Sequence record: MZ501089
Strand: one strand, 5' to 3'
From: Escherichia phage KarlGJung
Length of the DNA: 64,000 nucleotides
Part shown: positions 6,976-10,937 of the stretch, one piece after another
Numbering within the stretch: position 1 is the first letter of the stretch
How the letters are laid out: each line of letters begins with the position of its first letter
Notes under the pieces: model-generated
What the model was told of the DNA's origin: nothing
Seen by the model: the letters and a program-made list of their open reading frames with translations, nothing else
Database searches by the model: none
Translations under genes and position numbers: made by a program

Positions 6976-7165
6976 AAGTTTTCCATGGTAAAGGCAGTTT
7001 AGTTTTCTTTACTGTTAGTTCAACATCAGGATTCTTTTCTCTCAATTTAAGACATTCCTCCCAAGCTCTGATTTCACTAGTGAATACACAAAATTGCCCA
7101 TTACTAGTACCGACTAAACCACTATTTACAATAATAATAGCCCAAGTTTCATGATGCCACGCCAT
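6968..7165 (-). CDS. hypothetical protein (65 aa)
   Basis: ORF track; ATG start. Confidence 0.4.
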   Translation of the reverse strand: MAWHHETWAIIIVNSGLVGTSNGQFCVFTSEIRAWEECLKLREKNPDVELTVKKTKLPLPWKTYE

Positions 7166-8070
7166 TAAAAATCTCCCGAGTCAACTTGCCAGCATTCAAC
7201 ACCGATGCGGCGCCACATTTCAACTACTTGAGTTCGGTCATCAATAGCTAATTTCACATCAAAATGTGGTGCGATGTGTTTCCAGAAAATTTCTTCTTTA
7301 ACTACATCATCTTTACGGGTATCGCCTTGTTCGCGTTGACACTGCATGACTAATGGAACACCAGCAATGTCCTCAACCCATTTACGGGTCATACGATAAT
7401 ATTTTGTTGGGTCTTCTTTGGTTCCACTTTCACGACCTGAAACGACTACGATTTGATAACCCATAAGAGCATACATCTTAGACAGTTCAACAACCATAGG
7501 ATTGATAACATCGGTATCGCATTTTTCAAGGTCATAAGGACCACGACCATTCATTTTAGCTAGTGTACCATCAACATCAAAAATAACTGCTTTTGGTTTA
7601 CCAGGAGTCCCATTATATACCGGAAGACCGAGATACTCTCGCATGCTTTTATACATTGAGCGTAAAACATCAATTGGTACTGCTTTAGTTCCGCGTTTTG
7701 AGTTACGTTTAACCAATTCAGTCCAAGGAACATCAAACACTTTATGTTCAACTTTCCAGCCGTATTCTTTGGCAAAAGTTTCCCATGCTAGGCGACGTTC
7801 AGGATTCAAGTTAGTATCTGAAATGATTACGCCCTTAACAGAATCACCACCGTACAGAATACTTTTAGCTGTATCAAACTGCATACCAGTTACGATGCCT
7901 TCTTTCTTTTTGGTATACTTGTACTCATCGCGTTCTTCATGACCCATGATGGATTGACGATAATCATCACGATTGATATTATAAAACCCAGGATTTTTAG
8001 CAATAAATTCACGAGCCCAAGTACTCTTACCAGAACCAGGACAGCCAATAGTCAAAATAATCTTTTTCAT
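7165..8070 (-). CDS. pseT: polynucleotide 5'-kinase/3'-phosphatase
   Basis: Walker [10 protein letters not shown] at the N-terminus and HAD-type FDVDGT phosphatase motif; 301-aa T4 Pnk-like. Two adjacent ATGs; I took the second (MKKIIL...). Confidence 0.9.
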
Positions 8071-8381
8071 CATTCAATTCCTAGTAAAATTTTAAGACGT
8101 TGAACACGTAATTCAACGAGCTCTTTAGCTGCCTCTTTATTACTTAGTTTACTACTAACATTAGCTGAAATGAACATAATAATGTGTTCATTGAGTTCGC
8201 GAGTATCTACGCCTTTCGCTTTTGCTGCTTGAGATAATGCTTTACCTGCTTTATCTAAAGCTTTCGCAGGGTCTTCATCATTTAATACTACCCCACGGTC
8301 CAAATCCGTATATACTGCACCATTGCATGCATCAATGTAACGGTCTGAACATTCAATATAACGTTCTAACAGAGCTTTCAT
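8070..8381 (-). CDS. hypothetical protein (103 aa)
   Basis: ORF track; ATG start; ATGA overlap with pseT. Confidence 0.45.
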
Positions 8382-8608
8382 TTATTTTTCTCAACTAATG
8401 ATTGAATATAATCATGCAGATCTTTAGATGCCTTACCCCACTTATTTTGATATTCATTTTTAAGATTAGCACGTGATTGAGCTAATAAAACATCATTAGT
8501 TGGAGGTAAAGATTCTAACCGCTGAATTTGGCGTCCATAAATCATTGCAGCCATCTCGGATTCATAAATCAATCCTTTGAGATGTTCAAATTGATGCCAT
8601 GAAATCAT
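8378..8608 (-). CDS. hypothetical protein (76 aa)
   Basis: ORF track; ATG start. Confidence 0.4.
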   Translation of the reverse strand: MISWHQFEHLKGLIYESEMAAMIYGRQIQRLESLPPTNDVLLAQSRANLKNEYQNKWGKASKDLHDYIQSLVEKNK

Positions 8609-8904
8609 TTACATTTATCCTCTTTTAACTCTTGACGATAATAACATATCATAGTTTTCTGGTCATGTACATATCGTTTTACATCATTAAGCCAAATACG
8701 AAATTCCTGAGAATCTTCAAATGGCATACCTACCCAAGCTTTACCATCAATAACTTTAACTTGCCAAGATAGTTTAGCTTCGTCATATGACTTTATTTGC
8801 ACAGGCCAATTAGGATGAACTGTTTCTTTCTTTACTTCTAGAGGCTTTGTCGAACAACCAACTAGAAGACCAATAGATAATATTACTGCTGATAGTTTAA
8901 TCAT
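8605..8904 (-). CDS. outer-membrane lipoprotein, candidate o-spanin
   Basis: Signal peptide ending in the lipobox LLVGC|S; 99 aa; immediately downstream of the candidate i-spanin; position matches T4 pseT.2. Confidence 0.5.
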   Translation of the reverse strand: MIKLSAVILSIGLLVGCSTKPLEVKKETVHPNWPVQIKSYDEAKLSWQVKVIDGKAWVGMPFEDSQEFRIWLNDVKRYVHDQKTMICYYRQELKEDKCK

Positions 8905-9254
8905 TTAGAAAGGTCCTGGATGTCTTCTGCGAACTTGTTGAAGGAGTTGTTGATTTGTTTTTCAACCAATCCTGGCTTATGAGCCACCACATCCGCCTTC
9001 TTTGCGTCTTTGCGCAGTTTTTCATTTTCACGCTCAATAGCAGCAATTGCCTCACGATTTTTATTATTCATCGCATCAATATAATTATACTGAATTCGCA
9101 AATTATTTAATGCTAAGGCGTTTTCATTGGCCGTTTTTGTAATTTCAGTAACCGATGTTTCTAATCTTTCTACCTTATTTTTTAAAATAATAGATGTTCC
9201 ACCAAATACTATTACAAGTAATAGCAAACCTGCTGTCGTATTACTTAATTGCAT
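8901..9254 (-). CDS. candidate i-spanin (N-terminal TM helix plus coiled coil)
   Basis: N-terminal hydrophobic helix (AGLLLLVIVFGGTSIIL) followed by a charged, helical-looking region; position matches T4 pseT.3. Confidence 0.5.
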   Translation of the reverse strand: MQLSNTTAGLLLLVIVFGGTSIILKNKVERLETSVTEITKTANENALALNNLRIQYNYIDAMNNKNREAIAAIERENEKLRKDAKKADVVAHKPGLVEKQINNSFNKFAEDIQDLSK

Positions 9255-9751
9255 AAAGTTTTAATAACCTCTATAATATCGTCTTGAGAAAGACCGTTAA
9301 TTAAAATATGATGTTCCGCCGGAGATTTAGAAATTTTAAAGCATGCCGCAACATCTTCTGCCATATCCGATGCGCTACGATTTGGATTACTAATTCCAAG
9401 ACGATGTTTTCCCGTTAAAGGATTAACGATAATATAGCATTTACAGCTATTGATATGAACATTAGGTTGAGTCTGATTAATGAACACTTCACAATCATAC
9501 TTAGCGAGTTGATTTTCTAAAAAGACTTTCATCTCTTCAACCGCATCAGGAAGCATATCACGGGCTTGCTCAAGACGACGATTTCGATATTCTTTAATGG
9601 TCGTTTTCCGCTTGACTTGCTTAGCTAAATCTTTCTTAAGATCGGTGATATATCCAACTCGACGATTTCCTTTAAATACAGAAATCCCATCTGTAGTATC
9701 ACCGTATGCTTCAACGACCATTTCAGTAGTAATAAGTTGTAAATCCATCAT
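9245..9751 (-). CDS. alc: Alc, inhibitor of host transcription on cytosine DNA
   Basis: 167/168-aa ORF directly downstream of rnlA, as in T4; two adjacent ATG starts (true start may be 9748). Confidence 0.65.
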   Translation of the reverse strand: MMDLQLITTEMVVEAYGDTTDGISVFKGNRRVGYITDLKKDLAKQVKRKTTIKEYRNRRLEQARDMLPDAVEEMKVFLENQLAKYDCEVFINQTQPNVHINSCKCYIIVNPLTGKHRLGISNPNRSASDMAEDVAACFKISKSPAEHHILINGLSQDDIIEVIKTLCN

Positions 9752-9812
9752 AAAGTCCTCATGTTATGTCAGTAAGACTACTGTAACACAACACGAGGGA
9801 CTTGTAAACAGC

Positions 9813-10937
9813 TTAGTATCCTTCTGGGATAAATTTTTTATAATTTTTCAAAAAATTCTGTTCGATTTCACACATAACCTTCTCTTGACTATCATACCCT
9901 TGGTAGAGGCTCATGATGATACCGAACAGATGATCCATTCCAGCACCTTTAGCAACACCTTGCGCTTCCATCGCATAAGTCTTTCTATCCTTACCACAAT
10001 GCTTATTGTGACAGTCAAGAACTAAGAATAAAGCTCGGTCTAAGTACTTCAGATAAGTCGTTTCAAATGCTTCAATTTTTCTATATGAATATTCATCGTC
10101 AGCGTACATTGCTTTAAGATCATCTGATGCACCGTCAATAATAGTCTTAAACAATTTTTCTGGATTATCTAATGAACTTTTTGTGCTATGAAGAGACACG
10201 TACCAGTCAGACTTAATTTTAAAATGAGAACCATCTTTCATCACAGCAACATAGCCTTCGATGTTTTCTGCATTTTTAGCTTCTTCTACCCATTTAGGGC
10301 TATCGATTTCGAATCGTTCAACTAGATATGGACGAAGAGCAGCATCTTTATAAATGTCATCATATGAAATGTATTCACCCGTTTCGTTTTCACGAATATT
10401 CAATAAAATGATTTTCATCTCTTGGTAAGCAAGAACGATTCTATTAGTTGGAGCGACGAATTCGAAGTTAGCAGTAAATCCATCTTCGGCTAATTCTTTA
10501 AGTCTGTCGCGCAACTGGTGATGATTAATATTCATCAAAATTCCATTAGCCATTAAAGCCTGTTCAGATTTGATTGAACCCTTTGATTTGAACAGAATTT
10601 CATCACCGTCTAAATAAGTTGATACCAAAGACCCATCTTCTTTTGTTAGAATGTAATCAACATCATTTAAATCGATATTCATCGTGAATGGATTTTCATT
10701 CAAGTTAAAAAACTTTTCCATGGGACGAGAGGCAATTCTTACTGGTTTTTCTCCATCCATTTCAAACATGATTCCACGACATTCCAATGCGTCTGGAAGT
10801 AACCAATCAGAATAAGATGCATAATTATATGAGAAAATTCTGTAAGTTCTTCCAGATGCACTTACATCATCTGAGTAAAAAAACTTACGCTGTGAATCCT
10901 TACATAGTTCCATTAAATTGTTAAAAAGTTCTTGCAT
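9813..10937 (-). CDS. rnlA: RNA ligase 1
   Basis: 374-aa protein from the ATG at [21 protein letters not shown]..., with ligase motif I (LTKEDGSL); matches T4 gene 63 product. The ORF track extends 12 codons further upstream. Confidence 0.9.

Follow-up and report, generated by a model that had tools for sequence, protein, structure and literature searches.

The closest described counterpart of the genes considered here is the circuit formed in phage T4 by pseT, rnlA and stp together with the prr locus of the host. The same three genes were identified in a 64,000-nucleotide stretch of DNA from Escherichia phage KarlGJung (sequence record MZ501089), the whole of which is referred to below as the window; pseT and rnlA, which code for polynucleotide kinase/phosphatase (Pnk) and RNA ligase 1 (Rnl1), respectively, delimit the interval 7165..10937 that had been flagged in an earlier note on this DNA, while stp lies further along. 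On clinical E. coli strains that are prr-positive, T4 with a mutant pnk or rnl gene is restricted, and mutations that suppress this restriction map to stp (PMC3014915). The 26-residue Stp peptide is required for activation of the latent nuclease of these hosts and suffices for it, its target being the EcoprrI complex and not the anticodon nuclease PrrC directly; EcoR124I is also inhibited by Stp, whereas type IA enzymes are not, and the N-proximal 18 residues of the peptide matter most (PMC3014915). The tRNA-Lys is cut by PrrC 5' of the wobble base (PMC3014915), and the mechanism linking Stp, PrrC, Pnk and Rnl1 has been reviewed (PMC3014915; PMC1920235; PMC12707154). The T4 record itself describes rnlA as an 'RNA ligase for repair of tRNA in restrictive prr hosts, in conjunction with PseT' and stp as an 'activator of host PrrC lysyl-tRNA endonuclease'.

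Two other described systems invite comparison. The bacterial Pnkp1-Rnl-Hen1 system likewise contains a healing-and-sealing pair acting on RNA cut by ribotoxins, and its Pnkp1 (PDB entry 4xrp; PMC4411300) is matched by the Pnk of the window over its full length (E = 1.5e-39); it differs, however, in being cellular, in possessing the Hen1 methyltransferase that marks the repaired junction and in having no Stp-like trigger. The tRNAs of phage T5 also answer tRNA-cleaving defences, PrrC included, but do so by replacing the cleaved tRNA and not by mending it (PMC11555353). A search of the 64-kb window for tRNA genes was negative, so that tRNA replacement is not encoded in it, and a search of the window against Rfam at gathering thresholds returned no match.

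The window very probably carries functional orthologues of T4 pseT, rnlA and stp, which would work by the established T4 mechanism. The three genes and the evidence by which each was recognized, beginning with its open reading frame (ORF), are as follows:

7165..8070, minus strand: pseT, polynucleotide 5'-kinase, 3'-phosphatase and 2',3'-cyclic phosphodiesterase (Pnk), 301 residues (ORF, Pfam, PDB)
9813..10937, minus strand: rnlA (gene 63), RNA ligase 1 (Rnl1) and tail-fibre attachment catalyst, 374 residues (ORF, Pfam, PDB, ribosome-binding site)
39173..39253, minus strand: stp, 26-residue Stp peptide, which blocks type IC restriction (EcoprrI) and hence activates the PrrC anticodon nuclease (ORF, Pfam, PHROGs)

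The pseT product is classed as a T4-type polynucleotide kinase-phosphatase on the strength of both of its domains, which match the Pfam families HAD_PNKP (4e-59) and AAA_33 (2e-23) above the curated thresholds. The protein aligns over its full length with T4 polynucleotide kinase (PDB entry 1ltq; E = 2e-208) and is identical to the product of the T4 reference genome at 299 of its 301 residues (99.3%), the two changes being A43G and A297D. In the kinase domain, the sequence GCPGSGKST at residues 9-17 conforms to the P-loop pattern GxxxxGK(S/T), and K15, S16, D35, R38 and R126 are retained; in the phosphatase domain, DVDGT at residues 165-169 conforms to DxDxT, accompanied by D165, D167, S211, R213, D254, K258 and D278, and R176 is likewise retained. 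Among these residues, Asp35 acts as the general base of the kinase, Asp165 as the nucleophile and Asp167 as the acid-base catalyst (PMC3592404). An alternative in-frame ATG lies one codon upstream, at 8073, and its use would yield a protein of 302 residues.

The rnlA product is assigned to the T4 RNA ligase 1 family by both its nucleotidyltransferase domain and its C-terminal domain, with Pfam matches to RNA_lig_T4_1 (9e-26) and T4_Rnl1_C (2e-39, residues 253-374) above the curated thresholds and a full-length match to PDB entry 2c5u (E = 1.5e-253). It is identical to its counterpart in the T4 reference genome at 369 of 374 residues (98.7%), and all five substitutions (R141Q, V181I, T200A, Y209F and I217V) fall within positions 141-217, leaving the T4_Rnl1_C region 253-374 unchanged from T4. 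This all-helical C-terminal domain is specific to Rnl1 and has been implicated in tRNA specificity. Also retained are K99, the motif I (KxDG) lysine, present here in KEDG, together with R54, K75, F77, G102, K119, E159, E227, G228, K240 and K242, a list of residues and roles that we take to be the one established by mutagenesis in the Shuman laboratory. An AAGAGGA ribosome-binding site precedes the ATG at 10937, which is also the start used in T4; the GTG at 10973, from which a program had listed the ORF, was rejected as the start codon in favour of this ATG because of the ribosome-binding site and the agreement with T4. The Rnl1 of the window also matches chain B of PDB entry 9do4, which is T4 RNA ligase 1, presumably in complex with another molecule; a literature search yielded no paper naming this entry.

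The Stp peptide is identical to that of T4 at all 26 residues, the N-proximal 18 included, and its gene differs from that of T4 by two synonymous nucleotide changes and no nonsynonymous ones. It belongs to Pfam family PF08133 (Anticodon nuclease activator family; 2e-21) and to phrog_6763, and stp directly follows ndd and precedes ac, as in T4. Synonymous changes also prevail among the codon differences from T4 in pseT (25 synonymous versus two nonsynonymous) and in rnlA (42 versus five), and the ratio of nonsynonymous to synonymous substitution rates (dN/dS) relative to phage RB32 comes to 0.07 in pseT and to 0.09 in rnlA. The excess of synonymous changes and the low dN/dS values indicate that the genes are under purifying selection. 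With full-length frames, intact catalytic residues and nearly all differences from T4 synonymous, it is extremely improbable that at least one of the three is a decayed, nonfunctional remnant, and no evidence supporting this was found. The placement of pseT and rnlA in 7165..10937 and of a 26-residue Stp at 39173..39253 in the earlier note is upheld to the base, the end coordinate 10937 included, by the reading frames, the Pfam and PDB matches and the identity to T4, an agreement well outside what chance would give; all three genes are on the minus strand.

If the T4 mechanism applies, Stp, made early in infection, would inhibit restriction enzymes of type IC, EcoprrI among them, and this inhibition would unmask the PrrC tRNA-Lys anticodon nuclease. 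The Asp165/Asp167 phosphatase domain of Pnk would then take off the cyclic phosphate, while its P-loop kinase domain would phosphorylate the 5' end, and Rnl1, by way of a Lys99-AMP intermediate, would close the anticodon loop again, allowing translation and phage growth to go on. From sequence comparison, we infer that the proteins perform these reactions in KarlGJung and that the phage would therefore survive on prr-positive hosts. The T4 model as given in the earlier note, in which Stp activates PrrC and Pnk and Rnl1 reseal the cut tRNA, agrees with the literature (PMC3014915; PMC12707154), and the proposal that the phage is equipped for hosts with prr-type defence gains support from orthology to the T4 proteins. 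The portrayal of the set as a repair toolkit with Stp as its trigger is apt for the Pnk-Rnl1 pair, but not for Stp. The peptide acts against type IC restriction, an action to which the PrrC of the host responds; it belongs with the anti-restriction factors and not with the repair enzymes, and Pnk and Rnl1 cover the liability that it creates.

The window is assigned by its sequence to Tequatrovirus, the genus of T4-like coliphages. A megablast search with 7165..10937 retrieved 545 phage records, 496 of which cover at least 80% of the interval, and nearly all of the matches are T-even phages of Escherichia, Shigella, Yersinia or Salmonella, headed by Escherichia phage AdolfPortmann (Bas44, MZ501046; 99.5% nucleotide identity) and vB_EcoM_R5505 (99.4%). 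The order of the genes between the DNA ligase region and gene 41, with rIIA, the topoisomerase and the primase on the way, agrees with that of T4 and of Bas44. T4 has the same three genes in the same order and on the same strand, among the same neighbours (cd.5, pseT.1-3, alc and denA for pseT and rnlA; ndd and ac for stp), and nucleotide identity to T4 across pseT, rnlA and stp is 95.6-97.5%; elsewhere the window differs from T4 in its intron-less nrdB, in the absence of segG and in a gp37/gp38 of another type. In Bas44 the three genes are labelled polynucleotide kinase, RNA ligase RnlA and 'type IC restriction inhibitor Stp'. Bas44 is nevertheless a genome distinct from that of the window, which has a td intron with I-TevI that is missing from Bas44, another gp37/gp38 region and small insertions. 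For decades the circuit has belonged to the textbook biology of T4, and both the T4 RefSeq record and Bas44 annotate the genes in the same way.

Homologues of Stp occur in 608 phage records, and in 422 of these the encoded peptide reaches an identity of 99% or more. By tblastn, homologues of Pnk are present in 2283 phage records and those of Rnl1 in 1855, approximately three to four times the number for Stp, and about 460 and 500 records, respectively, encode proteins of at least 90% identity. The Pnk and Rnl1 homologues extend to phages of Klebsiella, Vibrio, Aeromonas, Acinetobacter and Streptomyces, and those of Pnk also to phages of Mycobacterium, where no Stp was found. With hundreds of genomes sharing it, the trio is best regarded as an ancestral trait of Tequatrovirus and not as a special adaptation of KarlGJung.

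Outside the T-even phages, unannotated Stp-like ORFs of 25 residues, with proper start and stop codons, were observed in the small siphovirus genomes of K1ind2, a Kagunavirus, and Bas95:

NC_041898, 40077..40154: Stp-like ORF of K1ind2, 25 residues, the first 18 of which are those of T4 Stp
PQ850607: Stp-like ORF of Bas95, 25 residues, the first 18 of which are nearly those of T4 Stp

Stp-like matches were also seen in Veterinaerplatzvirus and PH1062. No Rnl1 homologue was found in K1ind2, whose Pnk match is distant and confined to the phosphatase domain, and a literature search combining Stp with Kagunavirus found no paper mentioning Kagunavirus.

Because Pnk and Rnl1 are much more widespread than Stp, their role is probably broader than countering Stp-triggered PrrC, and prr may not be the main target of the pair. 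This is one of the points that weigh against the T4-type interpretation. Another is that hosts carrying PrrC have been described only as 'some hospital strains' (PMC3014915), making the selective weight of prr for KarlGJung uncertain. Finally, as promoter and terminator scans at the two loci gave nothing above chance (19 promoter-like sites versus 18.7 expected from shuffled sequence, and 11 versus 10.8), T4 serves as the model for when the genes are expressed, and no claim regarding transcription units is drawn either. Taken further, the argument would be that Pnk and Rnl1 are kept mainly for other uses, their co-occurrence with Stp being an accident of lineage and not a three-part kit. Candidate uses are the mending of RNA after cleavage by ribotoxins or by anticodon nucleases other than PrrC, the preparation of RegB-cut mRNA for decay in the case of Pnk and tail-fibre attachment in the case of Rnl1 (gp63). 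A role of Pnk in the decay of RegB-processed RNA has indeed been described (PMC3014915), the T4 annotation assigns a tail-fibre role to Rnl1, and Stp, unlike the 2283 records with Pnk and the 1855 with Rnl1, is almost entirely restricted to enterobacterial T-even relatives. On the other hand, the sole known growth defect of T4 pseT and rnlA mutants appears on prr-positive hosts and is suppressed by stp mutations (PMC3014915), which ties the three genes together genetically. Retention mainly for other uses is thus possible but rather doubtful, and it is in any case broader than, and not exclusive of, the T4-type function proposed here; the pair probably acts on RNA damage more generally, with the prr circuit as one documented instance.

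The role of Stp itself can also be construed more narrowly, as that of a purely anti-restriction peptide directed against the type IC restriction-modification systems of EcoR124I/EcoprrI-type hosts, to which the phage would be adapted, the activation of PrrC being a counter-measure of the host and not a function of the phage. The ability of Stp to relieve restriction by EcoprrI and EcoR124I with no effect on type IA enzymes (PMC3014915) argues for this construal, as does the designation 'type IC restriction inhibitor' in Bas44, and the Stp-like ORFs of the siphoviruses K1ind2 and Bas95 fit a primarily anti-restriction peptide that is able to travel without the repair enzymes; in the absence of an Rnl1 homologue from K1ind2, an active Stp would there be unprotected against PrrC. 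T-even DNA, however, is hydroxymethylated and glucosylated, which bears on how much Stp would help such a phage against type I restriction; we regard the purely anti-restriction role as having about an even chance of being correct. It would refine the wording of the earlier note, where Stp is called a trigger, and does not contradict it.

The interval 7165..10937 comprises seven minus-strand genes, all co-directional, which follow one another in the order of transcription rnlA, alc, pseT.3, pseT.2, pseT.1, ORF103 and pseT. The five that lie between the two repair genes are:

9245..9751, minus strand: alc, host transcription inhibitor (Pfam ALC, 5e-91)
8901..9254, minus strand: pseT.3, i-spanin (ORF; T4 and Bas44 annotation)
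8605..8904, minus strand: pseT.2, o-spanin (ORF; T4 and Bas44 annotation)
8378..8608, minus strand: pseT.1 (ORF)
8070..8381, minus strand: ORF103, predicted four-helix protein of 103 residues (ORF; phrog_2364, unknown function)

A gap of 61 nt separates rnlA from alc, whereas the remaining adjacent genes share between 1 and 10 bases. The two repair genes, said in the earlier note to be close together, do fall within a single interval, but are spaced 1.7 kb apart with these five genes in between, and stp is located 28 kb away from rnlA. The products of pseT.1, pseT.2, pseT.3 and alc differ from the T4 proteins at 0-5 residues and, as far as is known, none of the five intervening genes takes part in tRNA repair.

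Of these genes, ORF103 is the one that sets the locus apart from T4, which lacks this 312-bp ORF and runs pseT straight into pseT.1, leaving a gap in the alignment at 8071-8375. Its stop codon overlaps the first of the two pseT ATGs. The protein is 100% identical to that encoded at the same place in Bas44, and an ORF103-like gene is found immediately upstream of pseT in most other T-even relatives; it stands beside pseT in 707 phage records, with at least 80% protein identity in just ten of them. Relative to RB32, nucleotide identity drops to 60-69% over 8065..8280, compared with 93-100% in the flanks, and ORF103 diverges far faster than its neighbours, with a dN of 0.25 and a dN/dS of 0.46 compared with 0.07-0.09, the variable part being the C-terminal half of the protein. 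A confident AlphaFold2 model built from ten homologues consists of four helices (predicted local distance difference test score of 84.9), for which Foldseek found no fold match in the PDB (best E = 0.78). Pfam gave no significant match, and with E values up to 10 admitted returned just a weak one to KH_NusA_C (E = 0.03, below threshold); a large protein search produced ten close T-even homologues, none of which carries a name or a Pfam domain. The label 'putative homing endonuclease' attached to this gene in Bas44 was rejected, as neither Pfam, the PDB nor the homologues support it. The position of ORF103 suggests a link to Pnk, although the proposal that it is an accessory or counter-defence factor of the RNA-repair module, for example adapting Pnk to different host nucleases or inhibiting a host factor, is a decidedly speculative one to which we attach little probability.

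Several further features of the window were recorded. The distal tail-fibre genes (29723..33511, plus strand) differ from those of both T4 and Bas44: gp37, of 989 residues, aligns to T4 and Bas44 just over its first ~130 bases (to 29856), and it is followed by a glycine-rich protein of 260 residues with GGGGGGGG runs, which we presume to be a gp38 adhesin of the T2/T6 type and not a gp38 chaperone of the T4 type. The pattern of mobile elements in 11428..18336 (minus strand) is also unlike that of T4. Here nrdB is uninterrupted (392 residues), with neither an intron nor I-TevIII, and between nrdA and nrdB (12603..13244, minus strand) there is a 213-residue ORF with a cysteine-rich C-terminus, which Bas44 annotates as 'putative homing endonuclease'. 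The td gene is split by an insertion, absent from Bas44, with a 245-residue ORF (16526..17263, minus strand) at the position of I-TevI in T4, and the td intron went unreported by Rfam at gathering thresholds; a 115-residue ORF occurs between td and frd (17989..18336, minus strand), and segG is missing between genes 32 and 59.

Among further genes that may take part in host interaction, a 92-residue ORF (34633..34911, minus strand) occupies the position of arn (anti-McrBC), for which it is a candidate, and a 259-residue ORF (58875..59654, minus strand), in a region that differs from Bas44, is a candidate dam by its position and by a DPPY motif like that of the T4 Dam methyltransferase. The dmd gene (62322..62504, minus strand), coding for the antitoxin against RnlA/LsoA, specifies a protein 96.7% identical to the Dmd of Bas44. 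Relative to both T4 and Bas44, a 326-bp insertion is present at 36969..37295, between motA and motA.1/gene 52, and contains a 75-residue ORF on the minus strand (37032..37259).

The value of these observations lies mainly in annotation, KarlGJung being a Tequatrovirus with intact copies of pseT, rnlA and stp, and the loose ends that they leave are ORF103 and the Stp-like ORFs of siphoviruses. As the records with the repair pair outnumber those with Stp three- to fourfold, the occurrence of Pnk and Rnl1 alone in a phage does not indicate prr-type hosts. With all three genes in place, KarlGJung would be expected to withstand both type IC restriction and PrrC.

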